Source: an uncultured Acidobacteriaceae bacterium
GTDB taxonomy: Bacteria; Acidobacteriota; Terriglobia; Terriglobales; Acidobacteriaceae
Direction: 5' to 3'
NCBI GenBank assembly: GCA_964609355.1
Contig: CAZSUK010000497.1
Location: 1-52,551, forward strand
DNA: 52,551 bases
Part shown: positions 3,265-32,400 of the stretch, one piece after another
How positions within the stretch are numbered: the stretch's first letter is position 1
Layout: each line of letters begins with the position of its first letter
The notes under the pieces: generated by a model
What the model was told of the DNA's origin: nothing
The model's database searches: none
The model's input: only the letters and a program-made list of their open reading frames with translations
Position numbers and translations under genes: made by a program

Positions 3265-3282
3265 CGCACGCTCCCTTCGCAG

Positions 3283-3802: not shown

Positions 3803-4648
3803 ATGAAATTTGGAGTCAACACCTTCATCTGGTCGGGAACCTTTGATCCATCCAATTTCGGCTTGCTGCCTACGATCAAAGAGGCAGGGTTTGACGGGGT
3901 CGAGATTCCGTTGCTAAGGCCGAAGGAGCTTCAAGCAGCCAGCATCCGCAAGGCCGTCGAAGCCAATGGTCTGGAAACTAACTGCTGTACTGCCCTGGTA
4001 GACGGCCACAGCCTGATCAGCGACAGTCCGGATATCCGGCGGCGGACCCAGCAGCATCTCCGAGACGTAGCCAAAGCCGCAGCGGAGGTGGGTGCGAAGA
4101 TTGTTTGCGGACCGCTCTACAGCCCGGTCGGCTATCTGCCTGGGCGGCGCCGAACCGGCGACGAATGGAAGTGGGCGGTCGAGGGCTTTCAATCGGTCGG
4201 TGAAACGCTCGCTGCCCACCAGGTGACTTTCGCGATCGAACCACTGAACAGGTTTGAAACCTACTTTCTGAACACCGCCGCGGATGCAGCCCAGTTGGCG
4301 AAGGAAATTGGCCATCCGAATATCGGCATCCTGTTCGACACCTTCCATGCCAACATCGAAGAGAAAAATATCGCTGCAGGATACACCACCGTCGGGCCGT
4401 ATTTGAAACATGTTCATACCTGTGAAAACGATCGCGGCATCCCAGGATCTGGGCATGTGGAATGGAAGGAAGTATTCCAGGCGCTCCGTTCCCTCAACTA
4501 TGATGGCTGGCTGACCATTGAAAGTTTCGGTTTCGCGATCGGCGATTTGAGTGCTGCTGCGTCTATATGGAGAGACATCGAACGCACTCCCGAGTCCATT
4601 GCTTTTGACGGGGTACGTTTTTTGAAGCACCAGGTAGCCGAGTCCTGA
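3803..4648 (+). CDS. Sugar phosphate isomerase/epimerase (xylose isomerase-like TIM barrel)
   Basis: 281 aa with typical AP_endonuc_2/TIM-barrel motifs (GFDGVEI, FAIEPLNRFE, LFDTFHANIEE, HVHTCENDRG, ESF). Confidence 0.85.
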   Translation: MKFGVNTFIWSGTFDPSNFGLLPTIKEAGFDGVEIPLLRPKELQAASIRKAVEANGLETNCCTALVDGHSLISDSPDIRRRTQQHLRDVAKAAAEVGAKIVCGPLYSPVGYLPGRRRTGDEWKWAVEGFQSVGETLAAHQVTFAIEPLNRFETYFLNTAADAAQLAKEIGHPNIGILFDTFHANIEEKNIAAGYTTVGPYLKHVHTCENDRGIPGSGHVEWKEVFQALRSLNYDGWLTIESFGFAIGDLSAAASIWRDIERTPESIAFDGVRFLKHQVAES

Positions 4649-4677
4649 TCTGTGTATTCTAGATACCGGAGATTTGA

Positions 4678-6414
4678 ATGACCCAGGTAACCCGCTCACC
4701 CAAGGTGTACGACGTTTGTATTATCGGTTCGGGAGCCGGCGGCGGCACCGCTGCCAAAGTCCTCACTGAGGGTGGTTTGAACGTTGTCATGCTGGAAGCG
4801 GGGCCTCTGCTGAATCCCCGCAAAGACTACAAAGAGCATGTGTGGCCGTATGCCCTGCCTCATCGCGGAGCAGACATAGGCGGCCGCGCCCGCCACGAGT
4901 TGAACGGCGAGTTCCTGGCTCCCAATGGTTTCTGGGAAATCGAAGGTGAGCCCTATACCACCGCTCCGGGGTCGAGCTTTCGCTGGTTCCGCTCCCGCAT
5001 CGAAGGCGGCCGCACCAATCACTACGGGCGCATCTCTTTGCGCGTCTCACCGGCGGATCTGAAGGCCCGCTCCAGGGACGGGCTGGGGGATGACTGGCCG
5101 ATTACCTACGAAGAACTCGCGCCCTATTACGACAAGGTCGAAGAGTTTATCGGTGTCTTTGGCACCAAAGAAAATCTTGTAGACGCTCCCGACGGGGTTT
5201 TCCTTCCGCCTCCCAAGCCGCGCTGCACCGAAACCCTGGTCAAGAAAGCTTGCGATCATCTCAATATCACCTGCATCCCCTCGCGTATGGCCATGCTGAC
5301 GAAGTCAGTCAATGGGCGCGCTCCCTGCCACTACTGTGCGCAGTGCGGACGAGGATGCATCAGTGCATCGAACTTCAGTTCCAGCCAGGTCATGATTCCA
5401 CCGGCGCACGCCACCGGGCGTTTCACGCTGATCCCCAACGCCATGGCGCGCGAGATCCTGGTCGGCAAAGACGGCAAGGCGCAAGCCGTTTCCTACATCG
5501 ACAAGACAACCTCGAAAGAGATGCGGGTGAATGCGCGCTCGTTTGTGGTAGCCGCCAGCGCTTGCGAAACTGCGCGCCTGCTGCTCAATTCGCGCTCCGC
5601 ACAGTTTCCCGATGGGTTGGCGAATTCATCCGGCACGCTTGGCCGGTACCTCACCGATTCTGTGGGTACCAGTCTCACCGGATATTTCCCTCAACTGGCC
5701 GCGGTGGCGCCGCATAATCACGACGGCATCGGTGGGATGCACATGTACATGCCGTGGTGGAAGGGAGATCGCAAGAACGATTTTCCGCGCGGCTATCACA
5801 TCGAGTTTGGCGGAGGACGCCACATGCCCGGGGTCGGGCAGTGGGATGGAATATGCAGCCACTTCGAGGGGTATGGATCGTCGTTGAAGCAAAACGTCCG
5901 CAGCATGTATGGCACCTTCATAGGATTCGCCGGGCGTGGCGAGATGATTCCCAATCCCGATACTTACTGCGAAATTGACCCCAAGGTGGTTGATAAATGG
6001 GGTATCCCCGTGTTGCGCTTCCACTTTGCCTGGAGCGACCACGAAATCAAGATGGCTAAAGACATGCAGGAAACGTTCACCGCCATCATCGAAGCGGGAG
6101 GTGGGACCGTCTTAGGCGGGGGCAGTCGGGACCCGGAAATGTCTCAGAACGACGTGGCCACGGGCGGAAGGCCTTACGGAATCTCCGAAGGGGGAGAAAT
6201 CATTCACGAACTGGGAACGGCGCGCATGGGGGACGATCCGAAGACTTCGGTACTGAATAAGTATTCCCAGGCGCACGACGTCAAAAATTTGTTTGTTGGC
6301 GACGGTGCGAGTTTTGTAACCGGCCCCGATAAGAATCCCACGTTGACCATCACGGCATTATCGTGGCGAATGTCGGACTACCTGCTCGATCAGGCTAAAA
6401 AAGGGGAGATCTAA
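4678..6414 (+). CDS. GMC family FAD-dependent oxidoreductase (gluconate 2-dehydrogenase flavoprotein-like)
   Basis: N-terminal Rossmann motif DVCIIGSGAGGG, 578 aa. C-terminal GMC signature (HELGTARMG ... NLFVGDGASF). A small Tat subunit gene follows 1 nt later. Confidence 0.9.
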   Translation: MTQVTRSPKVYDVCIIGSGAGGGTAAKVLTEGGLNVVMLEAGPLLNPRKDYKEHVWPYALPHRGADIGGRARHELNGEFLAPNGFWEIEGEPYTTAPGSSFRWFRSRIEGGRTNHYGRISLRVSPADLKARSRDGLGDDWPITYEELAPYYDKVEEFIGVFGTKENLVDAPDGVFLPPPKPRCTETLVKKACDHLNITCIPSRMAMLTKSVNGRAPCHYCAQCGRGCISASNFSSSQVMIPPAHATGRFTLIPNAMAREILVGKDGKAQAVSYIDKTTSKEMRVNARSFVVAASACETARLLLNSRSAQFPDGLANSSGTLGRYLTDSVGTSLTGYFPQLAAVAPHNHDGIGGMHMYMPWWKGDRKNDFPRGYHIEFGGGRHMPGVGQWDGICSHFEGYGSSLKQNVRSMYGTFIGFAGRGEMIPNPDTYCEIDPKVVDKWGIPVLRFHFAWSDHEIKMAKDMQETFTAIIEAGGGTVLGGGSRDPEMSQNDVATGGRPYGISEGGEIIHELGTARMGDDPKTSVLNKYSQAHDVKNLFVGDGASFVTGPDKNPTLTITALSWRMSDYLLDQAKKGEI

Positions 6415-6415
6415 C

Positions 6416-7006
6416 ATGAGCGTATCCCGGCGCGATGTTTTGAAGTCTTTGAGCATGGGGGCTGCGGCAACCTCGGTTTTGCGGGTTATCCCTTTGCAGG
6501 CGGCTGAGTATGCCCACCACATGATCAGTACCGAGAAGGCGGAAAGCAAGGCTGGCGTGTACACGCCAAAGTATTTCCCGCCGTCTCAGTATAAAACGCT
6601 GCAGGCGTTATGCGAGAGGATCTTTCCCGCGGACGCTAACTCCGGCGGAGCGATTGAGGCTGGAGCTCCGGAGTTTATCGACCTGCTTACCAGCGAAAAT
6701 CCGCACTATCAGTTGACGCTGGGTGGCGGTTTGATGTGGCTCGATTCGACGTGCACGGATCGATTTGGAAACGCCTACCTCGACTGCACTGCGCAGCAGC
6801 AAACGGAGATGCTGGATTGCATTGCCTATCGTAAGAACGCAGTGAAGGATGCGACTTTGAGCCAGGGGGTCGAATTCTTTTCGTTTTTGCGTAACCTGAC
6901 TGCGGACGGGTTCTTCACCAGCAAGATTGGCATTCAGTATCTGGGTTACATCGGGAACGGATATTTGGCGGAATTCCCAGGCTGTCCGCCCGTTCCAGGC
7001 GTTTAG
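6416..7006 (+). CDS. Gluconate 2-dehydrogenase subunit 3-like protein with Tat signal
   Basis: Twin-arginine leader MSVSRRDVLKSL, 196 aa. It starts immediately after the GMC flavoprotein stop, the usual pairing for this family. Confidence 0.85.
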   Translation: MSVSRRDVLKSLSMGAAATSVLRVIPLQAAEYAHHMISTEKAESKAGVYTPKYFPPSQYKTLQALCERIFPADANSGGAIEAGAPEFIDLLTSENPHYQLTLGGGLMWLDSTCTDRFGNAYLDCTAQQQTEMLDCIAYRKNAVKDATLSQGVEFFSFLRNLTADGFFTSKIGIQYLGYIGNGYLAEFPGCPPVPGV

Positions 7007-7094
7007 CTTTCTCTAGAAGGGTACGAGCTTTAGAGGGCGTGCAAGTGCCGGAAAGGAGACCGCAGGTCCCTCTCCCCCGTTCTCACACTGCACA

Positions 7095-7859
7095 TCAGAG
7101 GCGTCTCTTGAGCCAGGTGAGGCCTTCAGAGGTCCCACCCTTCGGGCGGTATTCGCAGCCGATCCATCCATCGAAGTCGAGTTCGTCTATCAAATCGAGC
7201 ACGTAGTCATAATTCAGTTCCCCGTGATCGGGCTCGTTGCGTGCGGGCACACTCGCAATCTGGATGTGGCCGACGCTTTTCTCCGCCAGGTACTTCCGCA
7301 GCTTCATGCTCACGTCCCCTTCCACAATCTGGCAGTGATACAGATCCATCTGCACTTTGAGTGCGGGGTTGCCCACCTCATCGACAATCGCGTGGGCTTC
7401 GTCCTGCCGATTCAGGAAATAGCCGGGCATGTCACGGCAGTTGATCGGCTCGATCAGCAGTTCAACCCCTGCGGGCTGCGCCAGCGCAGCCGCCCAGGCC
7501 AGGTTGGCGACGAAGGTGCTTCGCGAGCCAGGCCCTAGCCCGGCCATCACATGCACATGCTGGCAGTTCAGTATTTGCGCATAGTCAATGGCATTATGTA
7601 TAGCGGTGCGAAACTCCGCCTCCCTGCCCGGGAGGCTAGCCAGTCCTCGTTCGCCCGCGGCCCAGTTTCCCGGCGGGGCATTGAACAGTGCCTGAACCAA
7701 TCCATGCGATTGCAGCCATGCCGCCAATTGTTGCGCGGTATACTCGTAGGGAAACAGATACTCTACTGCCGCAAATCCGTCTCTGGCGGCCGCGGCAAAA
7801 CGGTCAGGGAATGCATATTCCCCATACATAAAGCTTAAATTTGCGGCAAAACGCAACAT
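7095..7859 (-). CDS. otnI: Hydroxypyruvate isomerase family protein, likely 2-oxo-tetronate isomerase
   Basis: 254 aa, Hyi-like TIM barrel ([12 protein letters not shown]..., EYLFPY, LIEPIN, MDLYHCQ). It is the last gene of a denD-otnK-otnC-otnI string. Confidence 0.75.
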
Positions 7860-12510: not shown

Positions 12511-14067
12511 ATGCAATACACACGGCGTGAAACGCTTAAATTGCTGGGCTATTCGGCAGCCTGGGCACGAACCAGAGGTGTGTTTGCCGATACAGCCAAC
12601 CTACCCATCACACCAGGGCCCTTCAAAGCGACGCGAGCATCGCTCGATACGTACCGTGTCCCGGACTGGTTCCGCGATGCTAAGTTCGGGATCTGGTCTC
12701 ACTGGGGACCGCAGTCCGGTGTCGAGGACGGGGATTGGTTCGCGCGCAACATGTATATCCAGGGAACTCCGCAATATGAGTACCACCTCAAGGCGTACGG
12801 ACATCCATCCAAAACGGGCTATAAAGATCTGATCCCGTTGTTTAAGGGAGACAAGTGGGATCCCGACCATCTGATGGACTTGTACGTGAAAGCAGGCGCG
12901 AAGTACTTCGTCAGCATGGGTGTCCACCACGACAACTACGATATGTGGAACTCGAAGTATCAGCCTCGTTGGAATGCGACCGCGGTTGGGCCCATGCGTG
13001 ACATCGTTGGTCTTTACAAGCAGGCCGCACGCAAGCGGGGACTTCGTTTTGGGGTTAGCGAGCATCTCTCCAATAGTTTTGACTGGCTCGCTCCCGCGCA
13101 CACCAGTGATACCAGCGGTCCCTTGGCGGGGGTGTCCTACGATGGCACCGATCCAATGTTTGCCGATCTCTATCACAATTACACTCAGATGCCTCACGAC
13201 TTCGCGCAAACAGCGAAGGCTATGGGGCGGGTCGCACCCGACGAGTGGAAGATGGAGTACTTTAACCGCATCAAGGATCTGATCGACCAGCACCAGCCCG
13301 ACCTGCTTTACACCGATGGCGGCATCCCGTTCGAAGAATATGGTCTGGCTACCGTAGCCGAGGTGTACAACGTGAGTGCGGAACTCCATCAAGGAAAGGT
13401 GGACGCCGTTTATTGCAGTAAAACCCCCGGTGATTGTGCGGTGGGTACCTGCATTGTTGACCATGAGCGAGGCGTTTCCGATGCCATTTCTACCCAGCCT
13501 TGGCAGACGGATACCTGCATCGGGGTCTGGCATTACAAACGCGGCCAGGTATACAAAACTCCCAAGAAAGTGATCGATCTGCTGGTCGACATCGTCAGCA
13601 AGAACGGTAATCTGCTACTCAACTTTCCTCTGCCCAACAGCGGGGAATTGGATGCCGAGGAGATGCATGTACTCGAAGGCATCACGGCGTGGATGAAGGT
13701 GAACAACGAAGGCATCTACAGCTCGCGTCCCTGGACCATCTATGGTGCCGGACCATCGACCGAAGTAACGGTTCCGCAGACCGGCTTCAACGAGGGCAAG
13801 CAGCCCCCATTGACAGCGGAGGACGTGCGCTTCACGACCAAGGGCAAAGTTCTCTACGCCTATGTCATGGGTACGCCGGCAAATGATGTGGTCATCAAGG
13901 CGCTGGGAACGAGCAGTCCGCAGGAGCCGGGAAAAATACTCAACGTAGAAATGCTGGGACACCAGGACAAGCTACATTGGAAGCAGGACAAGCAAGCTTT
14001 GCAGGTTCGCGTGCCGTCAGCCAATATGTCTGACATCGGCGTCACCTTCAAAGTCACGCTGGCCTGA
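12511..14067 (+). CDS. Alpha-L-fucosidase (GH29) with Tat signal
   Basis: Leader MQYTRRETLKLL. GH29 hallmarks (FGIWSHWGPQS, KAGAKYFVSMGVHHDNYDMWNS, LYTDGG), 518 aa. Confidence 0.9.
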   Translation: MQYTRRETLKLLGYSAAWARTRGVFADTANLPITPGPFKATRASLDTYRVPDWFRDAKFGIWSHWGPQSGVEDGDWFARNMYIQGTPQYEYHLKAYGHPSKTGYKDLIPLFKGDKWDPDHLMDLYVKAGAKYFVSMGVHHDNYDMWNSKYQPRWNATAVGPMRDIVGLYKQAARKRGLRFGVSEHLSNSFDWLAPAHTSDTSGPLAGVSYDGTDPMFADLYHNYTQMPHDFAQTAKAMGRVAPDEWKMEYFNRIKDLIDQHQPDLLYTDGGIPFEEYGLATVAEVYNVSAELHQGKVDAVYCSKTPGDCAVGTCIVDHERGVSDAISTQPWQTDTCIGVWHYKRGQVYKTPKKVIDLLVDIVSKNGNLLLNFPLPNSGELDAEEMHVLEGITAWMKVNNEGIYSSRPWTIYGAGPSTEVTVPQTGFNEGKQPPLTAEDVRFTTKGKVLYAYVMGTPANDVVIKALGTSSPQEPGKILNVEMLGHQDKLHWKQDKQALQVRVPSANMSDIGVTFKVTLA

Positions 14068-15709: not shown

Positions 15710-16234
15710 ATGCAACGGACAATATTAGCGTGTGCGATGGCGGGGTTGATGGTTTCGGGTGCGGCCCTGGGGCAGGGAAGCTCGATTCCCAGTGAATTGC
15801 AAGGGAACTATGCTCGCCTCAAAGCGAACATCCTGAAAGCGGCAGATAAGATGCCGCCAGAAAACTACAGCTTTAAGCCCACGCCGGATATTCGGACCTT
15901 TGCGCGTGTCGTGAACCACGTGACGGAGGCGCAGTTGCACATTTGCGGTGCAGCTAATAACACCGATCCCAGCGCGCTGGCGAAGGTGCCGCCGGAAACG
16001 GCGGATAAGGCGGCAGTCGTCGAGGCTCTCAAGGCATCCTTTGCCGAATGTGACAAAGCGTATGCAGGCCTGACCGATGCCAACATGACAGATATGCTCC
16101 AGGCCGGGCCAATGGGGAAACGGTCACGATTGGGGCTGCTTTGGGGGAACGTCGCCCATGACAATGAGCAATACGCGACCCTGTCGCTGTATCTCCGTTT
16201 AAAGGGTCTGGTTCCGCCGAGTAGTGAAAAGTAG
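15710..16234 (+). CDS. DinB family protein with signal peptide
   Basis: 174 aa, N-terminal hydrophobic leader. DinB-like four-helix pattern with conserved His residues (VNHVTEAQLH ... VAHDNEQY). Confidence 0.75.
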   Translation: MQRTILACAMAGLMVSGAALGQGSSIPSELQGNYARLKANILKAADKMPPENYSFKPTPDIRTFARVVNHVTEAQLHICGAANNTDPSALAKVPPETADKAAVVEALKASFAECDKAYAGLTDANMTDMLQAGPMGKRSRLGLLWGNVAHDNEQYATLSLYLRLKGLVPPSSEK

Positions 16235-16322
16235 CTCCCTCGTCCCCCGTCAGTGAGTCCCGCGAACTCAAGACTGAGTGGGTAAACCTGGGTTTTCCTG
16301 GCAAATGGATCCTGGCCGGAAC

Positions 16323-16350
16323 ACCCAGGTCTCAAAAGCGAGACCTGGGT
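16323..16350. repeat. REP-like perfect hairpin (ACCCAGGTCTC-AAAAGC-GAGACCTGGGT)
   Basis: 11-bp perfect stem with a 6-nt loop, between convergent genes. A degenerate partial copy lies just upstream (16276-16309, ACCTGGGTTTTCCTGGCAAATGG versus ACCTGGGTTTCTCCTCGCAAATGA). Confidence 0.55.
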
Positions 16351-16423
16351 TTCTCCTCGCAAATGAGTTATTCGTGCCCGCTCCCGGAAAAGAAACTGCA
16401 CACTCTAAACCCCTGGTGGAACC

Positions 16424-17545
16424 TTAAGGTTTCTTCTTCTTCTCAGGCTTGCTCTCAGGCTTGGAATCATCGCCAGCTTCCGTCTTCGCGGCCACATTGT
16501 TACAAGACTGATTGATCGGCTTAACAGCAAGTTTCAGGGTGGTATACGCCACCCCCGGCAAGACATCTTGTGCTCGAGACGCCACCGGAAGATTGTCCTT
16601 TGCGGTGCCCTTACGGATAAGATAGCCCCCCTTCACCATGAGATTGGGCATCTCGTGGCTAAGCTGGACCGTATCCCTCTTTGCAACCATGACGTAGTCG
16701 CCGCTGAGCAAGCCGATGTAAGTGTCTTCGCGCATGGGATCAGCAAGTGCCTGTTGCGTCGCCACGGCGGTGGTCAGATTTCCGTTCATCACAAAGCGGG
16801 TGCGATCTTCCCAGTAGCCGAAGGCGGCACTAAAGGCGCTTAGGGCAGGCACGCTGACTGCCGGCAACACAACCATCGGCGCCACCAGCTTGGCTCCAGT
16901 GATCATGACCTTCAATATCCTGACGAATTGTGCGTCGTTAGGGGGCTGACTTACGTTCACGGCAAGCTTGCCTGTACCCTTGGTGAGCAGAATATTGCTG
17001 GTCGCGCTAAGTGCCTGGTCGGATTTGAATCCAAGGTCTTCGAGCGATATCTTACCGGCGACCCCGGGCTTGATAGACGCGATCGCCGTCCAGGCGAGGG
17101 GCGCAAGCAAATTCATAAAAGGGTGGACCTGGGTAGCGTCGATGCGCATTTGTTGATCCTTTTGCTTGTCACTGGCCGACGGGGGCTGGTAATGGGAAAG
17201 CTCAATATTCAAGTTCACATCGCCGTCATGATCGAGCAGTTCCGTCTTCTCAATCTCGGTGGCATAGCGAAGTTTTTCCTCGTCGGCCTTATAGTGCAAA
17301 TACTGTGTTTCCGCATCTGGATCCTGCAAACCGGCAGACCCTGCGCGTGCTCCTTGCTTGTAGCCTGGGCTGCTGGTATTTACGCTATCGAAGAAGCCAT
17401 TCCAGAATTCGTAGGCATCGTGCGGCGCCTCGGCACTGGAGACGTCGTACCGTTCCAACGCAGAAGCGGAATCTGCATCAAACATTGCAGAGGCAAAGGC
17501 CAAGGCGAGCGCGTTGCCCGAGAAAGTCCGGCGGGAGATCGACAT
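16424..17545 (-). CDS. Orphan exported protein (Tat-type leader), function unknown
   Basis: 373 aa. Leader MSISRRTFSGNALALAFASAMF. Long internal hydrophobic stretch (GAKLVAPMVVLPAVSVPALSAFSAAFGYW). Lys/Pro/Glu-rich tail ending KPESKPEKKKKP. I recognise no family motif. Confidence 0.7.
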   Translation of the reverse strand: MSISRRTFSGNALALAFASAMFDADSASALERYDVSSAEAPHDAYEFWNGFFDSVNTSSPGYKQGARAGSAGLQDPDAETQYLHYKADEEKLRYATEIEKTELLDHDGDVNLNIELSHYQPPSASDKQKDQQMRIDATQVHPFMNLLAPLAWTAIASIKPGVAGKISLEDLGFKSDQALSATSNILLTKGTGKLAVNVSQPPNDAQFVRILKVMITGAKLVAPMVVLPAVSVPALSAFSAAFGYWEDRTRFVMNGNLTTAVATQQALADPMREDTYIGLLSGDYVMVAKRDTVQLSHEMPNLMVKGGYLIRKGTAKDNLPVASRAQDVLPGVAYTTLKLAVKPINQSCNNVAAKTEAGDDSKPESKPEKKKKP

Positions 17546-17622
17546 AGAGAACTCCTAAGTTTCGCTGAATGGGGCCGATGCAGAGGGGAAGAAAACTCAT
17601 AGCAGCATACTCCAAAGCAGAC

Positions 17623-17650
17623 TGAGCGCGCTCACATTCCGTGCTACAAT
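17623..17650 (+). promoter_or_regulatory. Candidate promoter/operator of the caspase gene
   Basis: Perfect 12-bp palindrome TGAGCGCGCTCA at 17623-17634, followed by TACAAT at 17645-17650, about 30 nt upstream of the ATG at 17681. I found no good -35 element. Confidence 0.3.
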
Positions 17651-17680
17651 TCGGCGATTTTCTCTGCGGAGCTCATATCT

Positions 17681-20011
17681 ATGTCTGCCTGGCGGGTTCT
17701 CCTTGCGGTTTTCTGCCTATTCGCGCCGATGCTCCGGGCACAGCAGAAGTATGCCCTGCTAATCGGCATCGACACCTACCAGCCGCCTAATACGGTAATA
17801 AAGCCTCCTCCCGGAGTATCCAGCGGACGTTTCGCCCCGGGCGCACCGCTTTTCACCAATCTCGCCGGTCCGACCAATGACGTTGCTTCCGTGCGCCAGG
17901 TGCTCACCAGCGCAAAATTCGGCTTTCCCAATGACGACCAACACATTCACCTGCTGGAAAACGGTGAGGCGACGCGAGTGGGCATCCTGGCGGCGATGAA
18001 CAAATATTTAATTAATGAGCCGCAGAAGGGAGACATTGTTGTCCTCTATGTCGCCGCCCATGGGTCCTTGCGAGTTAACACAAAATCGAAGAAGCAAACC
18101 TTCGATCTTGGGGGTAAGCCCACCCCACTCGATAACACCATAGTGCCCGCGGACGCTTATCTGGGTGCGGAGGATGTTCGCGACCGCGAAATGGCTCGCA
18201 TTTTCAACCAGGCTTTGGACAAAGGAATTCGCCTGACCGCCATTTTCGATACCTGCCATTCAGGGGGCACAGCGCGTGGGGCGCAGAGCGGGCCCAGGAT
18301 GGCGGCGCGCATGCTGGCCTACGATCCCCGGGATATCGCGGAGCCTCCTGACGTCGATGCCGGCGGCACACCGGTGATCGCACCGGAAGACCGCAGTGAC
18401 AATTCCGCCCTGATCCTGGCGGCAACACAAGTTGACCAGAAGGCGATGGAGCTGGCGGATGCTTCACCCCCGCACGGCGCCTTTACCCTGGCGTTGATCG
18501 ATGCATTGCAGGCGCTGCCGGCTAATATTCCTGCGGTCGATCTTTGGAAGCGGGTGCAGGTGGGCCTGGAAGTTGAGGGCATAACCGATCAGCAACCGGT
18601 GCTCGACGGAACCAAACGGCGAAAACAGCAACCGCTGTTCGGTGGAGAAGCCGATACCGGCAAAGTGCGGGCGGCGGTCCAACAGGTGCAGGACCAAGGA
18701 GTGATCCTAGACATCGGCGCGGTGTCAGACATCGGCATCGGCAGCGAGTTCGTATCCATTCTCCCGGCTGCAGGCGAGAAAGTAGCCCTCCGCATCACGG
18801 AGGCCGAGGGTATCGATCGCTCCAAAGCTACAGTGGTTTCTCCTGCGGGCGCGAAGGTGGCTGCCAAAGATGTCTTTGAATTGGCAAAATGGGTCCCCGC
18901 CAAAAAACCGAACCTGTACTTCTGGGTGCCTGTCTCTCAGTTGACCCAGGCGCAGATTACCGCTGCGGTGAGCGAAGCTCGATTGTCGGGTGTCCGTCTA
19001 GTGAATGATCCGACCCGCGAAGCATGGAGCTATCTCATCAGCTGGGATGGTTCGCAGTGGACTACGCAGAAAGCCGGGGTCCGCGGCGCAGATCCGCTCG
19101 CAGCAACCCTGACTGCAGACCTCATCAAGCGCAAGTTACCAAAAGACGCAGTGGTGTGGCTCAACCTGCCTCCGGCAGCGGAGGTGAGCACCCCGTTGCT
19201 GAGGAACGATCCAACCAGCGCCGCGCAAACTACCGCGAGCGAAGTCCAGGCGATGTATGTTCTGGCAGGCACGGTCACGGAAAGCGGCCCTGCGTATACC
19301 TGGTACAACCGGGGCGAGTTGATTGCCGGCCGCCAGACACCGGCGGGTTACGGAAACGGCTGCTCGGCGGATTCTCCCTACCCCATCCGTACGGAATGGG
19401 CTTCCGGTGTCGATACGGTAGCTACGCTCACCCAGTTTGCGGCCGGGCTTGCCAAGCTCAACGGATGGGTCCAGCTACTGCAATCAGGCGCAGCCGGCGG
19501 CGGCTCCGATTATCCCTACCACCTCTCCCTGCTGCGTGAAGCCGACAGTACGACCGCGGAGGACAAGGGAAAAACCCATGCCGACGATGTTTACCAAATC
19601 ATGCTCCAGGCTCGCGGAGATACGCGGGCTGATCCACGTTGGGTCTATGTGTTGGCGATTGATTGCCAGGGAAAGGGAGACTTGATGTTCCCGCAACAGG
19701 GCGGCAACAATCGCTATCCCCTGGAAGCCGGCAGGCTCGACCAGATTCGGCTGCCTGGCGCAAGGTTTAAAATCTCGCCTCCATTTGGAACCGACACCTA
19801 TGTACTTTTGTCGACGTCGACGCAGCTAGCCAATCCTGACGCGCTGAGCTTCGAAAGCGTGACTCGGGGTCCGCTCAAAGAACCGTCTTCACCGGTCGAG
19901 ATGCTGCTGATTTCTACCAGTGCGGGAGAGCAGGGAGCCACCTTGGAGACGCCTACGGACTGGGGAGTGGAATACCTGCAGATGCATAGCCAGCCGGAAA
20001 AAGCACCGTGA
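17681..20011 (+). CDS. Secreted caspase-family (peptidase C14) protein with a long C-terminal extension
   Basis: Sec leader MSAWRVLLAVFCLFAPMLRAQQ. Caspase fold with YALLIGIDTY and the His/Cys dyad VVLYVAAHGS ... AIFDTCHSGG. About 480 further aa, whose end (WVYVLAIDCQGKGDLMFPQ...YVLLSTS) resembles DUF4384 from memory. Confidence 0.85.
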   Translation: MSAWRVLLAVFCLFAPMLRAQQKYALLIGIDTYQPPNTVIKPPPGVSSGRFAPGAPLFTNLAGPTNDVASVRQVLTSAKFGFPNDDQHIHLLENGEATRVGILAAMNKYLINEPQKGDIVVLYVAAHGSLRVNTKSKKQTFDLGGKPTPLDNTIVPADAYLGAEDVRDREMARIFNQALDKGIRLTAIFDTCHSGGTARGAQSGPRMAARMLAYDPRDIAEPPDVDAGGTPVIAPEDRSDNSALILAATQVDQKAMELADASPPHGAFTLALIDALQALPANIPAVDLWKRVQVGLEVEGITDQQPVLDGTKRRKQQPLFGGEADTGKVRAAVQQVQDQGVILDIGAVSDIGIGSEFVSILPAAGEKVALRITEAEGIDRSKATVVSPAGAKVAAKDVFELAKWVPAKKPNLYFWVPVSQLTQAQITAAVSEARLSGVRLVNDPTREAWSYLISWDGSQWTTQKAGVRGADPLAATLTADLIKRKLPKDAVVWLNLPPAAEVSTPLLRNDPTSAAQTTASEVQAMYVLAGTVTESGPAYTWYNRGELIAGRQTPAGYGNGCSADSPYPIRTEWASGVDTVATLTQFAAGLAKLNGWVQLLQSGAAGGGSDYPYHLSLLREADSTTAEDKGKTHADDVYQIMLQARGDTRADPRWVYVLAIDCQGKGDLMFPQQGGNNRYPLEAGRLDQIRLPGARFKISPPFGTDTYVLLSTSTQLANPDALSFESVTRGPLKEPSSPVEMLLISTSAGEQGATLETPTDWGVEYLQMHSQPEKAP

Positions 20012-20014
20012 GTG

Positions 20015-21757
20015 TTACTTTACGAATTTCAGATTGGTATCGCCGTAGAGTACATAAGCCAACGCGGTAGGGTTGCCCGTATCCTTATAGACCTCGCGTC
20101 GCGTGCGCTCCAGGGCCGCGCTCACATCCACTGGGCCGCTAGCCAGCCCATCTTGTACCAGCTGATAAAAGTGCACTGAGAATTTAGCTGCTACCTGGTC
20201 GTTGACTGGCCATAGTGCGCCAATATATCCAATGGCGCCCTTGCTCAGGACCGCGGGACCGAAGCCATCCACGAAGTTGCCGCTGCGCGTCGCATTTCCG
20301 ACATCGCATGCATTGAAGAAGAAAAAAGTATGGCTTAACGGTGGACTTTGCGCCATCGAGCGCCACGATGTCACGTCCAGAGCTCCATCTTCCAGTAAGA
20401 TCTCAAACTCATTGTTGGCCGCATCCAATTCTCCGTGTCCTGCAAAATGAACAATGCCTTGAGGCGGATTTTGAAAGAGTGCTTTCAATGCATTCCTGTT
20501 TCCGTTGATGGCGCTGTAGCCGCTTAGCCGGGCAAGCTGCTGGGTCTCTTCTGCCTCCCCATCCAGCGATCGACTGCCGGTGTAGTGCGGCGCAATCACA
20601 AACGTATGAGGAATATTCTCTGAGTACGGAGGGTTTTGCGTCATTGCCCCACCACTGGTATCCCAGCGAGCCACAGAATAATCCAGGCCAAGAAAGTTCT
20701 GTTCATCAGTGCCGTCTTCCCGTACCGGCCGCATCAACTCCCACGGTATGTCCGGCTGGTCCGATTCAATCTGAATGGTACGAAACAGCTTGCCCCGTGC
20801 GGCGATCGTTGCCCAAAAAGCCCTTTTGAATACGTCGGGCGCATAGTGCTGATAGAGCACCTCCCCGAACCCTTTTGCGTGTTCGCTTACGCGGTCGGGA
20901 GCAATCAACTGGGATCCACGCCCGGCACTCGCAGGCGAATGTTGTGCGAGCCACTCTGGAAAGCCGGTTAAATCCGGTAACTTGCCCGGGGGAAGATGAA
21001 AGTATGGGGAAAAGATGAATACGTTGTTATCCCTGATGAAGACCAGCAGGTCTGGTTTGGGCACCGTGTTGTCGAGAGCTCCAGATGCATTGCCGACCGA
21101 CGCCGCCGTGGTTGCCATTGGTCTGCTGGGAGGTTCCGCAGCCTGCTGGGGCGTAGTGGGGATGACGTGAACATCCCGGCTGATGAACGCCAGGTACGCA
21201 TTGTTGTAGCCAAAAGTGGCCACCAAATGGATCACGCCACTGGCCGCGGCCGCAGGGCTGGCTTTGACAACAAAGGTGGCCGCGGTGGCATTACCGTGGC
21301 GCGGCAACTCGATACTGGTCATTCCCGTTCCGTGACTAAATACCAAGCCGTCTCCGGCCAGAGTCACGTCCAATTTCCAGCTCTGCTGTGGGGTGGCCGG
21401 CAGGGTGAACACCAATTTGCCCTCAGGAGTCGAATCTCCATTGAGGATTTCTGCGTTGCTTAGCTTCTGCTCCGTCAGCGAAACAACGACGGTGAAGTCC
21501 TGGCCCGCGGCTACAGATTCCGGACTTAGGAGCAAGGGATATGTTTCCACCCGCTCTTGTGCCGGTGTGGAATCTGACTGGGTTACCGGGACCTTGCTTG
21601 GGGTGGCAGCCGGCGACCTGGTATCCATCGATACGTCATTGCCGATGGAGTTTGTGGAAGGAGCTCGCGTGTTGACCGTAGGACTACGCCCAAAGACAAG
21701 CCAAAGCGAAATGGCCACACCAGCAATCGCCAGCCAGTATTTCTTTTCAAGAGCCAT
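20015..21757 (-). CDS. Membrane-anchored CHAT domain (caspase-fold) protein
   Basis: N-terminal TM helix (KKYWLAIAGVAISLWLVFG), S/T/P-rich linker, beta-rich module. C-terminal CHAT-like domain with IVHFAGHGELD and FFFFNACDVGN (His/Cys dyad). Confidence 0.8.
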   Translation of the reverse strand: MALEKKYWLAIAGVAISLWLVFGRSPTVNTRAPSTNSIGNDVSMDTRSPAATPSKVPVTQSDSTPAQERVETYPLLLSPESVAAGQDFTVVVSLTEQKLSNAEILNGDSTPEGKLVFTLPATPQQSWKLDVTLAGDGLVFSHGTGMTSIELPRHGNATAATFVVKASPAAAASGVIHLVATFGYNNAYLAFISRDVHVIPTTPQQAAEPPSRPMATTAASVGNASGALDNTVPKPDLLVFIRDNNVFIFSPYFHLPPGKLPDLTGFPEWLAQHSPASAGRGSQLIAPDRVSEHAKGFGEVLYQHYAPDVFKRAFWATIAARGKLFRTIQIESDQPDIPWELMRPVREDGTDEQNFLGLDYSVARWDTSGGAMTQNPPYSENIPHTFVIAPHYTGSRSLDGEAEETQQLARLSGYSAINGNRNALKALFQNPPQGIVHFAGHGELDAANNEFEILLEDGALDVTSWRSMAQSPPLSHTFFFFNACDVGNATRSGNFVDGFGPAVLSKGAIGYIGALWPVNDQVAAKFSVHFYQLVQDGLASGPVDVSAALERTRREVYKDTGNPTALAYVLYGDTNLKFVK

Positions 21758-21827
21758 GTTAGTGCGGGCAATATATCACCCTCACCGCTTGGTGAGAAGA
21801 TGCCATGGTCATGGCCGCCCAAATATA

Positions 21828-21855
21828 GGTGGGTGACCCAGGTCTCAGCGAGAAC
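21828..21855. repeat. Degenerate REP-like element (GGTGGGTGACCCAGGTCTCAGCGAGAAC)
   Basis: Shares GTGGGTGRCCCAGGTCTC with the 12334 element. The right arm has decayed (GAGAAC instead of GAGACC). Confidence 0.35.
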
Positions 21856-21862
21856 TTTGCGC

Positions 21863-22810
21863 TTATAAAATCGTGATCTTACCGTCAGGCGTCTTGGTGA
21901 AGGCGTGAAGCGTGTTGCCATTCTGATCGAGATGGCGCAAGGTCATCAGTCGTTCGCTTACCGAAATATGGCTGAACCCATACACCGTCTTTGCGTAAGG
22001 TCCACGCTGCGAAGGGTCAATCTTGAGCGTGTATAAGTCGGCTCCGGCGCCTCCGGAAAGGAAATGGCTGGTTGGATGACCTTCGAACTCCAGGTGCTGC
22101 ATGTCATGGTCATGGCCGGCCATGTATAAGTCGACATGATATTTGCGGAATAGGGGGTCCCAATCACGAATCAATACGGGATGGTCTCCGTGGGGACCGT
22201 CGGAGAGGACCGGATGGTGCGCGATGACAGCCAGAAAAGGAGTTGTTCTGGAGCGCTTCAACTGGGTTTCAAACCAGGCAAGCTGTTCCGCTTGTTGCTC
22301 TGGTGTCAGCGTAAAATCGCGCCCAGACTTTTCCTTGCCGTCCGTGCGCGGCATATTGCTGTCCAGCGCCAGAAACGTAACCGTTGGATCTTTGGCGGGA
22401 AACTCAAAGCGATACCAGCGCGCCGGCATCGTCCAGCGGCTTCGTCCGTTGCGTGCGTACTCGAGCTCGGCATCGACTTTGCTTTCAGGGTAGTACTGAT
22501 AATCGTGGTTTCCCAGTACCGCATAGGCAGGGCAGGGAAAATCCTGGGCCGGGTACAGGTCTTCGAAGTGTGTTTTCCAACGCGCGGAACCGGCGCCTCC
22601 GGCCAGTTCGCCGTACCAGTTGTCGCCGAGCATCAGCAGCGCCTGGGCCCGAAGTGAATGCCGTTTGGCATACGCCCGCAAGCCCGCGGCTACCTGTACT
22701 TGTGCCGCGTCGTCCTCGTATCCCCAATCCCCAAGCGCCAAAATGTGCGCAGCAGCCGGGTCCGCCGGCACAGCGCGAGCGAGAGTTCGAAAAGATCCCA
22801 GGCCGGTCAA
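21863..22810 (-). CDS. Purple-acid-phosphatase-like metallophosphoesterase (N-terminal Tat leader interrupted by an in-frame TAG)
   Basis: Full PAP motif set: LALGDWG, MLGDNWY, VLGNHDY, VIAHHP, MAGHDHDMQH. The open frame starts at the TTG at 22810. The same frame continues upstream to the ATG at 22885 through a TAG at 22829-22831. Confidence 0.8.
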   Translation of the reverse strand: MTGLGSFRTLARAVPADPAAAHILALGDWGYEDDAAQVQVAAGLRAYAKRHSLRAQALLMLGDNWYGELAGGAGSARWKTHFEDLYPAQDFPCPAYAVLGNHDYQYYPESKVDAELEYARNGRSRWTMPARWYRFEFPAKDPTVTFLALDSNMPRTDGKEKSGRDFTLTPEQQAEQLAWFETQLKRSRTTPFLAVIAHHPVLSDGPHGDHPVLIRDWDPLFRKYHVDLYMAGHDHDMQHLEFEGHPTSHFLSGGAGADLYTLKIDPSQRGPYAKTVYGFSHISVSERLMTLRHLDQNGNTLHAFTKTPDGKITIL

Positions 22811-22943: not shown

Positions 22944-23909
22944 CTAGTCCCCCGGCGGCTGATCTGGTTCACGCCGGTGCCAGCGGTAAGCGGCCACCGA
23001 GTTTTTCCAAAAGAATTTTTCTTCGGCCACAGGGCCTTTGGCCGCGACATAGTTGCGCACAATCGAAAAGGTTTCCTCGTAGGTTGCATGGTGGTCGCTG
23101 TTGGGCCAGTCGCTGGCGTATAAGACGTGGTCTTCGCCGAAGACATTCCAAAGCTCCTCCAGCCTGTCGTGATTAAAGCTCGGGGCCACCGGAGCTGTCT
23201 GTTCACTGTGCGCGAGAGCTACCTCAGATAGCTTGACGAAGACGTTCTTGTTTTTCGCCAGCTGTCGCAGGACCGACCAATACTCGTCGCGCGTTGCTGC
23301 AGGCACTGCCGCACTTGGCAGGTGATCGATCACGATCCGCAACTCAGGGATGTGGTCCGCCACGCCGGAGATCGCGCGAATAAGGTTTACATCGGGATTC
23401 GCACTGTCGAGCACCAGGCCCTGGTCGGCCAACATCTTCAGCCCAGGAAGGAATTCCGGTTTCTGCGCATCTAGGCCTAAGTCCCTTCCCCACAAATTGC
23501 CGTAGCGTATGCCCAGAAACAGCGGATTGGCATGCAGCCGTTCCAGGTCCTTTTGATACGTATCCGTTCCCGGAACCAGGTCGCCGACGATGCCTACAAT
23601 GATGGGATGGTTAGCGGCTACGCGTAGCACCCAGTCGTTATCGCTGACCAGGGGGCTGGCCTCGACCACGACGGCACCCACCACTCCGAACGGCCGGGCA
23701 ATGCGGGCATACCGCCCAGGCAGGGCAGCTTTGTAAAGCGCCGTATCGGTCTTTTCGGGCCAGGGGATGCCCCCCGGACGGCTGGGATCGAACAGATGAA
23801 TGTGGGTGTCGATAATCGGGGTTTTTCCTGGAAGCGCATGGGTGACCTGCGTGGCAGCCCAGCACCCGGCGATCGAAGCACCGAGGGAGAGAAATTCGCG
23901 CCTCTGCAT
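22944..23909 (-). CDS. Amidohydrolase family (amidohydrolase_2-like) protein with Tat signal
   Basis: Leader MQRREFLSLGASIAGCWAA, metal-binding IIDTHIHLFDP, 321 aa. Confidence 0.85.
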   Translation of the reverse strand: MQRREFLSLGASIAGCWAATQVTHALPGKTPIIDTHIHLFDPSRPGGIPWPEKTDTALYKAALPGRYARIARPFGVVGAVVVEASPLVSDNDWVLRVAANHPIIVGIVGDLVPGTDTYQKDLERLHANPLFLGIRYGNLWGRDLGLDAQKPEFLPGLKMLADQGLVLDSANPDVNLIRAISGVADHIPELRIVIDHLPSAAVPAATRDEYWSVLRQLAKNKNVFVKLSEVALAHSEQTAPVAPSFNHDRLEELWNVFGEDHVLYASDWPNSDHHATYEETFSIVRNYVAAKGPVAEEKFFWKNSVAAYRWHRREPDQPPGD

Positions 23910-23999: not shown

Positions 24000-24797
24000 T
24001 TGCAAAGACGCCATTTCCTGACTTCATCCCTGGCTGCAGCGGCGGCTGCGTTGACCTCGAGCGACTCTCACGCGCAGACGCCTGCCCCCAAGGGCCGCGA
24101 GTACTACGAACTGCGCAAGTATCGGCTGCGTTCAGGGCCGCAAACCAAACTGCTGCAAAGCTACCTGGAAAATGCGCTGATTCCCGCGCTCAACCGAGCC
24201 GGCTTCTCGCCCATCGGCGCGTTTAACCTCGACATCGGCCCGGAAACCCCGGCGACCTATTTACTTATTCCTTCCACCTCTCTCGAGTCACTCGTAACGG
24301 CCGAGCTCCAGATGGTAAAAGATGAGGAATTTATGAAAGCAGCGGCGCCCTTCTGGAACGCACCGGCGGCCGCGCCTGCTTTTGAACGAATAGAAAGCTC
24401 GCTCATGATCGCCTTCGAAGGCTGGCCCAAGTTGGTCGTGCCACCCGTGACCGCACAGCACGGAAAAAGAGTTTTCCAGCTCCGCACCTACGAAAGCCCG
24501 AGCAACCAGGACCACGTCGTCAAGGTGGAAATGTTTCACAAGGGGGAGTTTGAAGTATTTGCCCGTGCCGGTTTCTGGCAGGTGTTCTTCGGTGACACCT
24601 TGATCGGACCTCGCCTACCCCAGTTGACCTACATGGTCGGTTACCCGGATCTTTCTGAGATAGACGTGAAGTGGGATGCGTTTCGCGCCGATCCGGAATG
24701 GAAGAAGCTGTCTTCTTTGCCCAGGTACAGTTCCGAATCGATTGTCGATACCATTTCCAACCTGGTGCTCAGGCCGGCATCATTTTCTCAGATATAG
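24000..24797 (+). CDS. NIPSNAP family protein with Tat signal
   Basis: TTG start at 24000 preceded by GGAGGAG. Leader (M)QRRHFLTSSLAAAAAAL. Two NIPSNAP-like halves (YYELRKYRL..., VFQLRTYES...). Confidence 0.8.
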   Translation: MQRRHFLTSSLAAAAAALTSSDSHAQTPAPKGREYYELRKYRLRSGPQTKLLQSYLENALIPALNRAGFSPIGAFNLDIGPETPATYLLIPSTSLESLVTAELQMVKDEEFMKAAAPFWNAPAAAPAFERIESSLMIAFEGWPKLVVPPVTAQHGKRVFQLRTYESPSNQDHVVKVEMFHKGEFEVFARAGFWQVFFGDTLIGPRLPQLTYMVGYPDLSEIDVKWDAFRADPEWKKLSSLPRYSSESIVDTISNLVLRPASFSQI

Positions 24798-29476: not shown

Positions 29477-32400
29477 TCATTTGGCAGTGGCGATCAGGTG
29501 GAAGATCTGGGCTCCATATTTTTCTACAATTCCCATTCCTACGCCCGGCACAGCGAGCAAGTCAGAGTCGCTCCTCGGGCAAGTGCTTGCTATATTGCGC
29601 AACGTGCGATCACCAAAGATGCGAAAGGCGGGCATTTTTCTCCGCTTGGCCTCGGTCAATCGCCAGGCACGCAATGCTTGTTCCAGGCGCGCCTGGCGCT
29701 CCGGTGGAGGCGCATCTGACGCTGTTGCCGCGGCGGCACGTTTTTTGGCGCGTTTTGGAGTGGCTCCCGGAGCGGCTGCATCTCTCATCACGAACAGGTG
29801 GGCCTGACTCTCATTGAAGTTGAGTCCTGCGGGCAAAATGCTGACGTTCCGGTAAGGGATGCGCTTGCCTTGCGTCTCGAAAACGGCATCGGTAAACGAC
29901 AGCAGTTCTGCCCGGGCCATGGCCCCCAGAACTTCTTCGAAGGTATCCCGGCTGAGGTCGTTATCGGGATAGAGGTCGGTGTGCAGCTTTCCCGTGGATC
30001 GGGCAGGAACAGATCGCAGTTTTCTAAGAATGCGATCGAAAGCGATTTTTTCCGCATGCGTCGGAGTGCGAAACTTTTGTGCAACGCAGTTAGCCGGCTC
30101 GCAAAAGTCGCATATTCCGCATCCCTCAGCAGTGTCTGACGTATCCCCGAAATGGTGAACAAGTGATTTCATGCGGCAGTGGTGGCCCTCCGCGAAGCGG
30201 ATAATCTCCTCCAGCTGACTCTGCTTCTGATCGGCCTGCTGGGTATAGGAAGCTCGCCAACTGTTTACGCCAAGGCTTACATTCTCGGCAAAATCCACCA
30301 CCGCGCCTTTGTGAATCCACAGCTTCTCCAAGGCTTTGTCGAAGATGTCTTCATCCATCTTCGCCAGCTTGCGCACTGCTTCCTTGGGTTGGGATTGGCC
30401 GGAAAGCAGGGTAAAGATGCGGTCCAGCAACGCAACCGGAGGATAATCTCGCCCGAAGAAGAAGTCATGGGTGTGGCGATCCGCATAGGAGTACATCAGA
30501 ATGGCGCGGCTGGGCTTTCCATCCCTGCCTGCGCGGCCTATTTCCTGATAGTAACCCTCCAGACTGCCTGGAAACGCAGTGTGAATCACCGTGCGGACAT
30601 CGGCTTTATCAATGCCCATGCCGAAGGCCGTGGTCGCTACCATGACATCCGCCTTACCTGCCATGAACTGTTCCTGCACCCGCCGCCTTCGTTGGGCGTC
30701 GAGCCCGGCATGATAGCCGGCCACGCGAAAGTCGCGTGCCCAGGCGCCTGCGAGAGCCTCGGCTTGTTTACGCGTGGGCGTGTAGACAATGGCAGGACGG
30801 TTGACGGCCTCACGCAGGATGGCATGCGCCAGCCCGGGCCGATTGGAGGGCAGTGCCTCCACAATCTCGATACCGATATTTTCCCGGCGAAACCCGTGAA
30901 TGAACTGCTTGATGCCGCTCAGCCCCAGCTGGGCCGCGATGTCTTTCTGTACCAGGGGAGTGGCGGTTGCAGTAAGAGCGAGTACCGGCGCGGGGCGAAA
31001 GCTCGGCAGATACTGGCCCAGCATACGGTAATCGGGACGAAAGTCGTGGCCCCATTGCGAGATGCAATGCGCTTCATCGATGGCGATCAGCGCAGGCTTT
31101 CGTTTGGCCAACATCTCAGGAAAACCGGGCACGCGAAGCCGCTCGGGAGCGATAAACAGGAACTGAAGGTTGCCCTTTATGTAGTCGATACAAGCCTGCC
31201 GGGAGCTCTCACGGTCGCGGCCGGAGTGGATGCACTCGGCCGACAGGCCGAGATCCTTGAGCTTGCGCACCTGGTCGTCCATCAAGGCGATCAGCGGGCT
31301 GATTACCAGCGTCGTCCCGCCACGCGCCAGGCCCGGTAATTGATAGCAAAGTGATTTGCCTGATCCTGTGGGCATCACCAGCAGCGCGTCTTCGCCTGCC
31401 GTCACGGCCTGGCACACCGCCTGTTGGTTTGGGCGAAAACTGGAAAATCCAAAAACACTTTTGAGCAACTCGCTGGGGCTGGCGTTGCTGGGGATTGCTT
31501 TCGGAGCGGGAGTTTCTTGCGGGGCAGCGTTCACTGGTGTGGTTTCGCTCACCCGGCCCACGACCGAGCGCACGTATTCACTAATCCGTTCCAGAAAAGG
31601 ATCCAGTTGTGCTTCGCCATGCTGGATGCGGTTCAGGAACGCTTCCCATTGCCCGGTCATCGCCGGGCTCTTCACTTCTGGATGTACTACCTCGATCAGG
31701 TGGATCCCTTTTTCCGTGGCTTCGAGGCTCTTGCCTGTCCTAATGACGTAGGCGCGCTTCAAAAGCACTTCAATGATGGCTGCCCGGGTGGCTGGTGTTC
31801 CGAGGCCGGTCTCCTTCATGGCATCGGAGAGTTCTTTTTCATCCAGACTTTTGCCGGCGGTTTGCATAGCCGTCAGGATCGTGGCGTCGGTGAACCGTTG
31901 GGGAGGGCGGGTCTTCTTCTTTTGCGCTTCGACCTTGGTTACTGTCTGTGGCTGGCCCTGGGCGAGCGTCGCTGGCAGCGCCTGGTCGGTTACCTCGGCA
32001 TCTCTCCCCTGCTCTCGTCTGCGGGTGTCCGCGCCGGGATCGAGAATCTTCCAGCCTGCCTGGCGCACCACTGTTCCGGTAGTTCGGTACCGGTCCACCA
32101 CCGCTGCACTGCGGATGGCTGTAATCACCGTGGTTACTTCCTGCAGGTAGTCGTTATGCCACAACATGAGCAGGCGCCGGCAGACCAGGTCGTAAATCTT
32201 GCTTTCCTCATCCGAGAGCCGATCAGGCTGTTGCTTAACCGCGGTGGGAATAATGGCGTGGTGATCGCTGACCTTGGCGTCGTCGACATAGCGCTTGCCC
32301 AGAGTGCGCTCGCCTGTTCCCGGAGCCAATTGTTGTTGATAGGGACCGGAAATGGCCTGCACGATTTTAGGGAGTGTTTCCGCGATATCTGTCGAAAGAT

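Follow-up and report, generated by a model that had tools for sequence, protein, structure and literature searches.

The stretch of DNA analysed here (hereafter the window; 52,551 nucleotides, contig CAZSUK010000497.1 of an uncultured Acidobacteriaceae bacterium) contains three adjacent genes that specify a protein with a twin-arginine (Tat) leader and two predicted proteases of the caspase fold. The first gene, at 16424..17545 on the minus strand, encodes a protein of 373 residues which turned out to be the constant element of the cluster and is here termed the hub. The second (17681..20011, plus strand) encodes a metacaspase-like protease of 776 residues, predicted to be Sec-exported and termed C14-long, and the third (20015..21757, minus strand) a CHAT/C25-like protein of 580 residues with one N-terminal transmembrane helix, a lineage-specific accessory protease termed window-type CHAT. 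Comparison with related genomes showed a conserved, often operon-like association of the hub family with predicted exported caspase-fold proteases. A check of the open reading frames (ORFs) returned the genes, coordinates and strands given in a preliminary description of this DNA, as well as its layout: the hub and C14-long genes are divergent and separated by a 135 bp spacer read from the sequence (17546..17680), and the C14-long and CHAT genes converge, their stop codons lying 3 bp apart. A scan of positions 16100-22000 for promoters and terminators, which included the hub/C14-long spacer, gave nothing above chance. The closest public genome is a metagenome-assembled genome (MAG) of an uncultured Acidobacteriaceae bacterium (L005), with 93-98% protein identity over the neighbourhood.

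The N-terminus of the hub, MSISRRTFSGNALALAFASAMFDADSASA|LE, fits the Tat pattern. The leader (residues 1-29; 17459..17545, minus strand) opens with MSISRRTF, a motif of the S/T-R-R-x-F-L-K type, which precedes a hydrophobic stretch ending in an A-x-A site (ASA|LE). The protein had been called an orphan, a label that did not survive the homology searches: these recovered at least 649 clusters at 90% identity, most of which derive from metagenomes of Acidobacteriaceae and Terracidiphilus, and an exhaustive profile search yielded 301 clusters at 50% identity, of which 100 reached E ≤ 1e-30. It is the hub that stays constant and the proteases that vary. In an alignment of 76 members, RRx[FLIVM] occurs within the first 40 residues of 73, down to 21% identity, and Arg5 and Arg6 are ≥96% conserved, so that the Tat leader read earlier from the one protein holds for the family. 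This leader suggests that the hub is a Tat-exported protein. The hub has no sequence match in Pfam, NCBIfam, PADLOC or PDB, and the only Pfam family matched by any of the 76 members is TAT_signal (11 members, weakly). Since no His or Cys is conserved across the alignment, a redox cofactor is unlikely. Some hubs carry the name 'JGI: membrane protein YgcG' in databases, of which a low-complexity tail is the suspected source. Leaders of the twin-arginine type are also found on other proteins of the window, namely a gluconate 2-dehydrogenase subunit 3 (6416-7006), an alpha-L-fucosidase (12511-14067), an amidohydrolase (22944-23909) and a NIPSNAP protein (24000-24797); Tat export seems to be in wide use in this genome.

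The structure of the hub was modelled with AlphaFold2. With an alignment of 26 sequences the model was unusable (predicted local distance difference test, pLDDT, 41); the alignment of 76 sequences was used instead and gave a mixed beta/alpha fold with a pLDDT of 78.6 and a predicted template modelling (TM) score of 0.78. Foldseek found nothing for this model in PDB (best E = 0.21, TM ≤0.17). Its search of BFVD returned a single match, A0A1V0SF49 (E = 5e-5, TM 0.34-0.38, 11% identity), an uncharacterised protein encoded by the giant virus Hokovirus HKV1 and the only structural neighbour in the libraries searched. A gasdermin, serpin or pore-former fold was considered for the hub and rejected, both the Foldseek search of PDB and the PDB, Pfam, NCBIfam and PADLOC profiles being null. 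Two segments of the protein stand out. The loop formed by residues 160-180 (17006..17068, minus strand; PGVAGKISLEDLGFKSDQALS) is conserved above the family average, with the consensus P-D-K-A-G-K-L-S-L-Q-Q-L-G-F, Lys or Arg at position 165 in 62 of the 76 members, Leu171 in 72 and Phe173 in 65; its blocks (161-180) are modelled with the lowest confidence of the mature protein (pLDDT 46 and 35). The second segment, residues 207-245 (16811..16927, minus strand), is hydrophobic (Kyte-Doolittle values up to 1.99 in a 19-residue window) and modelled as helix-strand-helix; Pro228 is present in all 76 sequences, Pro223 in 72 and Ala234 in 73. The Lys-rich C-terminal tail of the hub was also considered as a metacaspase target and set aside, since it is present in members that have no protease neighbour and absent from a linked one (L094).

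C14-long matches Pfam Peptidase_C14 over residues 23-311 (49.1 bits; cut-off 21.4), a caspase (p20/p10-like) domain that spans 17747..18613 on the plus strand. Translation verified the codons of both catalytic motifs, AAHGS (His127, 18059-18061) and DTCHSGG (Cys192, 18254-18256), and the dyad, taken to be intact from the outset, is invariant together with Asp67 and Asp190 in 28 homologs of 45-92% identity. The nearest solved relatives are the metacaspases Yca1 (E = 9e-15), AtMC4, AtMC9 and TbMCA2 (to 4e-9). The alignment to Yca1 spans the ND and FDSCHSG motifs, and Asp67 (ND) and Asp190 (DxC) are aligned. In published metacaspase structures the ND and D-x-C motifs form the acidic S1 pocket; because both of its aspartates are kept, C14-long is expected to cleave after Arg or Lys. 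The catalytic domain is directly preceded by a Sec-type signal peptide (residues 1-20; 17681..17740, plus strand), MSAWR-VLLAVFCLFAPML-RA|QQ, with a basic n-region, a hydrophobic core and small residues before Q/T, after which comes RALLIGINTYQ. The form of this leader is conserved in ∼70 homologs, which bears out its first assignment. The homologs number 592, are ∼800 residues long and share the same architecture. The C-terminal extension that had been described is indeed present (18614..20008, plus strand), although with ∼465 residues rather than ∼480. Searches of Pfam and PDB with it gave nothing above threshold; a weak DUF4384 match falls at residues 652-714 (19634-19822; E = 7e-4, below the cut-off), DUF4384 is a precomputed Pfam hit in many C14-long homologs, and two cysteines of the extension, Cys561 and Cys662, are invariant in the same 28 homologs. 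In several long-read MAGs (L005, L022, L023, L027, L046, L050 and L062) the C14-long gene is frame-split or truncated; these are probably indel errors of long-read assembly and not pseudogenes.

The third protein matches Pfam CHAT over residues 336-561 (71.1 bits; cut-off 24), a catalytic domain encoded at 20027..20752 on the minus strand, and also passes the cut-off of Peptidase_C25 (38.4 bits; cut-off 23), the latter match being confined to the catalytic core (412-577) and overlapping the stronger CHAT match. As had been proposed, the dyad is intact: HFAGHG (His441, 20435-20437) and NACDVG (Cys484, 20306-20308) were verified, and the 13 distant relatives that were examined all retain them. 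Neither Pfam nor PDB searches gave anything above threshold for the N-terminal half, and no Pfam domain was found after the catalytic core, no specific model of the type IX C-terminal domain having been used. Only 97 homologs of this window type were recovered. The preliminary description, which noted a single membrane anchor, had predicted that the protein faces the periplasm or the exterior. The helix itself is well founded (residues 7-23; 21689..21739, minus strand), being kept in 13 of the 15 clade members (12-residue hydropathy maxima 2.7-3.8; one ORF lacks it), but its flanking charges leave the orientation ambiguous under the positive-inside rule. Three relatives (P0304, P0305 and P0321) have cleavable leaders, three (P0318, P0309 and P0313) have N-in anchors, P0304 bears a CarboxypepD_reg domain, and a few relatives lack any leader. 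Judging by these relatives, an outside-facing CHAT domain is the likelier arrangement. A Terracidiphilus relative of this protein occurs on at least 24 contigs together with resolvase, DUF3987, HTH_17 and DUF3800 genes (L096/L097, 9001-11076; L098, 5882-7957), a context that looks like an integrated mobile element.

The neighbourhood was then compared across 80 loci from species-representative Acidobacteriaceae genomes, which were fetched via the hub with 10-kb flanks; C14 genes were located by tblastn, and all flanking ORFs were clustered to find recurrent genes. The adjacency, from which a functional link had been suggested in the one genome, proved to be conserved. The hub has at least one caspase-fold neighbour in 79 of the 80 loci, and C14-long, with its full architecture, lies beside it in 72. 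In 63 loci the arrangement is operon-like, C14-long being on the same strand and directly upstream of the hub (median gap 72 bp, range 9-190). The C14 gene is inverted only in the clade of the window (nine loci); an invertible switch was rejected as the reason, there being no inverted repeats at its boundaries and the orientation being fixed within the clade. In four close relatives the C14 gene has been lost (L006, L009, L016 and L012, the last with a remnant of 48 residues); in these the hub gene is intact and has a CHAT gene 120-296 bp upstream, and the ratio of nonsynonymous to synonymous substitutions (dN/dS) of the hub in L012 is still 0.15.

A CHAT ORF was found within 10 kb of the hub in 50 of the 80 loci, and belongs to one of two lineages. 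The window type lies beside the hub in only 15, those of the window's syntenic clade and L058, so it is not a general partner; elsewhere its place is taken by a longer protein (∼1040 residues; Pfam CHAT E = 1e-44 to 1e-51) with tetratricopeptide repeats (TPR), termed TPR-CHAT, which is present in 36 loci and in ∼16 of them follows the hub at 18-96 bp. With 24% identity over 107 residues of the catalytic core, the two types are not orthologous on this comparison. In other clades the hub is followed by a protein of 440-520 residues that matches no Pfam family and by a second, 417-residue C14 protease (C14b; Pfam E = 7.5e-20), and then by TPR-CHAT where present. TPR-CHAT, the 468-residue protein and C14b all have classic cleavable leaders. 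The protein between hub and C14b (L031, 11150-12616; L090, 11993-13549; and 15 other loci) has a signal peptide and a proline-rich linker, and is 42% identical between distant clusters; Pfam and PDB searches with the 468- and 518-residue versions and with the N-terminal region of C14b gave nothing above threshold. By partner set, C14-long is the sole caspase-fold neighbour in 24 loci (seven on truncated contigs) and is accompanied by TPR-CHAT in 20, by TPR-CHAT and C14b in 12, by window-type CHAT in 10, by C14b in 5, and by both CHAT types in 1; window-type CHAT stands by itself in 4 loci and TPR-CHAT in 3 (all hub paralogs), and the one locus with no caspase-fold neighbour (L070) is a short contig.

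The association extends to more divergent hubs. At 37% hub identity, L090 has the order hub, C14-long, 518-residue protein and C14b, in which C14-long is 39.5% identical to the window protein over 822 residues; the 518-residue protein shows 42% identity to the 468-residue family, and C14b is 44% identical. Divergent from this cluster (6324-7766, minus strand) are genes for a CHASE2 sensor-domain protein and a 324-residue protein with a signal peptide. In L088 and L089 (38% hub identity) the hub is followed by TPR-CHAT, and C14 is absent. There (128-7687) the two genes adjoin IS481- and IS21-type transposase, phage-type integrase and ParA genes, which hints that the pair may move horizontally. 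A search from the protease side reached L094, in which a hub (E = 1e-95 to the hub profile) lies directly downstream of a C14 gene.

One explanation for these neighbourhoods is that the proteins have no direct biochemical relationship and are merely exported products of a common regulon, serving for instance to maintain the envelope or to scavenge extracellular protein, and that gene order has been kept by co-regulation and descent. Part of the conservation is inherited synteny, given that the 80 loci belong to a single family-level lineage, and the surroundings consist of metabolic genes (a fucosidase, a pyrroloquinoline quinone (PQQ) dehydrogenase) and not of defence islands. The selective regime is also like that of neighbouring metabolic genes: pairwise dN/dS values, for which dS was saturated in the more distant pairs, were 0.13-0.18 for the hub, 0.11-0.13 for C14 and 0.11-0.19 for CHAT, with 0.06-0.31 for two neighbouring genes. 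The three are functional genes under purifying selection, and evolve like ordinary genes, not like fast-changing conflict genes. Against such an explanation, the window's other neighbours (among them fucosidase, PQQ dehydrogenase, DinB and metallophosphoesterase) are shared by its own clade alone, which means that the hub-protease adjacency outlives ordinary synteny: the flanking genes change fully between clades while it survives. In addition, the partners are retained through reordering at 37-38% hub identity, CHAT lineages that are not orthologous have been recruited to the same position, and the gaps are short and the genes co-directional. Mere co-location was judged distinctly unlikely.

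A strict cascade of the three window proteins, with one caspase-fold enzyme switching on the other, which in turn cleaves the third protein, would account for three adjacent genes that are all under purifying selection in the window's clade. It would also fit the recurrence of window-type CHAT beside the C14-hub pair in the distant L058, and that of clusters with C14-long, C14b and TPR-CHAT in 12 loci. Yet window-type CHAT is absent from 65 of the 80 loci and occurs alone elsewhere, C14 is dispensable in four close relatives, a whole clade (L017-L030) carries only the C14-hub pair and lacks CHAT within 10 kb, and the orientation of the CHAT protein is ambiguous. We strongly doubt that such a cascade operates.

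The reading preferred here is that the proteases process the hub in the cell envelope. Hub and proteases would encounter each other in the periplasm or on the cell surface, where the proteases would cut the hub so as to process, activate or remove it. C14-long would cleave after Arg or Lys, the likeliest cut site being the conserved flexible loop near Lys165, and the different proteases would act as alternative or partly redundant inputs and not as an obligatory cascade. Such redundancy is supported by the four genomes that have no C14 and keep CHAT with an intact hub, and by the three hub paralogs with TPR-CHAT only. As a whole, we consider the chances evenly balanced that the hub is processed in the envelope, with the Lys165 loop as the probable site and the proteases as alternative inputs. 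Of the extracytoplasmic proteolytic module suggested in the preliminary description, this retains the conserved linkage, the intact dyads and the leaders of C14-long and the hub; the topology of window-type CHAT is ambiguous, and this protein is not a general partner.

Several observations weigh against processing of the hub. Coupling may be loosening in the window's own clade, given that C14 is inverted there and sometimes lost. Twin-arginine leaders are common on ordinary enzymes of the window, and the use of Tat by the hub is in itself unremarkable. The Terracidiphilus relative of window-type CHAT (P0318) is solitary, surrounded by resolvase, DUF3987 and HTH_17 genes. Once hub identity drops to ≤30%, the available flanks contain no protease gene: in L086, with long flanks, the order is a SurA-like gene, hub and fucosidase, and on two short contigs the hub precedes a major facilitator superfamily transporter gene (L085) or follows ParAB and bactofilin genes (L092); these distant hubs imply that the protein has a function of its own. 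Two of three independently sampled C14-long homologs lack a hub neighbour (none in L093; a tandem C14 in L095). The linkage, as far as these genomes indicate, is a property of one large hub subfamily and is not obligatory for either protease family. The Lys-rich tail of the hub is not specific to linked members. The Lys165 loop, too, is conserved in relatives that have no protease neighbour, and for this reason the assignment of residues 160-180 as a candidate recognition or cleavage loop is inferred only.

The same loop could be a binding element, as it would be if the hub were not a substrate but a regulator, inhibitor, scaffold or anchor of the proteases, the real targets of which would lie elsewhere (the envelope, competitors or phages). 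The hub is the most conserved component, with 55% identity across clades compared with ∼45% for C14-long and ∼35% for window-type CHAT, the proteases vary around it, and the repeats of TPR-CHAT suggest the assembly of a complex. A protein dedicated to governing proteases would, however, sit poorly with the many hub relatives that have no protease neighbour and with the C14-long genes that have no hub, and in the Foldseek search of PDB the hub showed no similarity to known protease-inhibitor folds. A regulatory or scaffolding role was considered unlikely, though deserving of serious attention.

A more specific version of processing would make the hub a latent membrane-active effector: exported by Tat in folded form with its segment 207-245 buried, it would be released for membrane insertion when a periplasmic caspase-fold protease cuts the loop near Lys165, and TPR-CHAT, C14b or CHASE2-type proteins would supply sensing on the envelope side. 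This must be regarded as a long shot.

Elsewhere in the window, a 1305-residue ORF (29477-33394, minus strand) fuses a type IA topoisomerase (Toprim and Topoisom_bac, residues 11-601) to a RecQ-type helicase (DEAD, Helicase_C, RecQ_Zn_bind and HRDC); the topoisomerase is N-terminal, the opposite of the domain order in reverse gyrase. Three genes at 39329-45076 (minus strand) resemble the imuA-imuB-dnaE2 damage-inducible mutagenesis cassette, and encode a RecA-fold protein (345 residues), an IMS/Y-family-like protein (515 residues) and a homolog of the DNA polymerase III alpha subunit (1068 residues). The product of a gene at 18-2201 (plus strand) is 727 residues long and combines a signal peptide and numerous TPR repeats with a CxxCH motif (NCTTCHH) near its N-terminus; it may be an exported TPR protein that binds haem.

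Literature searches returned no described exported caspase/CHAT cluster, Tat-linked caspase partner or hub family, in agreement with the first impression that this is not a described system. The accompanying premise of a cytoplasmic role for prokaryotic caspase-fold proteases was overstated. Clan CD includes the secreted gingipains and clostripain. Metacaspases with signal peptides also appear in surveys: signal-peptide-like N-terminal helices and an inferred extracellular location are described for a subset of prokaryotic metacaspases in the passages retrieved from one (PMC3501461), and Tat-type leaders on cyanobacterial pseudo-orthocaspases in those from another (PMC6426788). Both in-silico surveys (PMC3501461, PMC6426788), in these passages, treat single proteins and mention neither a conserved partner family nor an exported cluster of several proteases; here it is the partner, not the protease, that bears the Tat leader. 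Bacterial orthocaspases are known to carry DUF4384 as an accessory domain (PMC6426788, PMC7475262). With metacaspases and orthocaspases (MEROPS C14B), C14-long shares the p20-type domain, the His-Cys dyad, D-x-C-H-S-G and the ND aspartate; unlike them, it has a conserved Sec leader directly before the catalytic domain and a ∼465-residue extension with two invariant cysteines, and its gene is coupled to that of a partner with a Tat leader. We know of no characterised metacaspase or orthocaspase that is periplasmic or has such a partner.

In gasdermin systems, an adjacent caspase-like protease activates its partner by cleavage. The clusters described here resemble bacterial gasdermin operons in that a constant, non-enzymatic protein lies beside one to several variable caspase-fold proteases (C14, TPR-CHAT). 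They differ in that the hub has no gasdermin match in PADLOC or Pfam (76 members) and no match in PDB, in that the hub, C14-long, TPR-CHAT and C14b all have conserved leaders whereas gasdermin systems act in the cytoplasm, and in that the locus lies outside any defence island and its genes evolve slowly. In type III-E Craspase, the TPR-CHAT protein Csx29, acting with gRAMP, cleaves Csx30. Shared with it are the TPR-CHAT architecture (36 of the 80 loci) and the notion that a CHAT protease has one dedicated neighbouring protein as its target; here, in contrast, TPR-CHAT has a signal peptide, window-type CHAT has no TPR repeats, and no conserved Cas ORF cluster (gRAMP/Cas7-11 or CRISPR) was found in the flanks of the 80 loci, the sole Cas hit in the window having an E value at chance level (0.006). 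With the gingipains (C25) and clostripain (C11) the similarity lies in extracytoplasmic Cys proteases of the caspase-hemoglobinase fold, window-type CHAT passing the C25 cut-off. Gingipains are exported by the type IX system via a C-terminal domain (PMC4804311); the C25 match of window-type CHAT is, unlike theirs, limited to the catalytic core, and no C-terminal Pfam domain was found in it. Judged by sequence, the system is neither a gasdermin system, nor Craspase, nor a gingipain/type IX system.

What is new is the hub family and the cluster; C14 enzymes of the metacaspase type, CHAT enzymes and predicted exported metacaspases were already known. The cluster is widespread and slowly evolving, and the bacteria that carry it belong to a group that is dominant in soil and peat. 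To our knowledge, the bacterial caspase-fold systems characterised so far (gasdermin activation, Craspase and type IV Thoeris) all work inside the cell. If the hub is processed by its neighbouring proteases, the reach of regulated caspase-type proteolysis would include the bacterial envelope, and a first functional handle would be gained both on an unannotated family of 301 clusters at 50% identity and on the signal-peptide metacaspases of the surveys. Were the hub a latent effector, it would be an extracytoplasmic functional counterpart to the caspase-gasdermin switch, with an unrelated and previously unseen fold.

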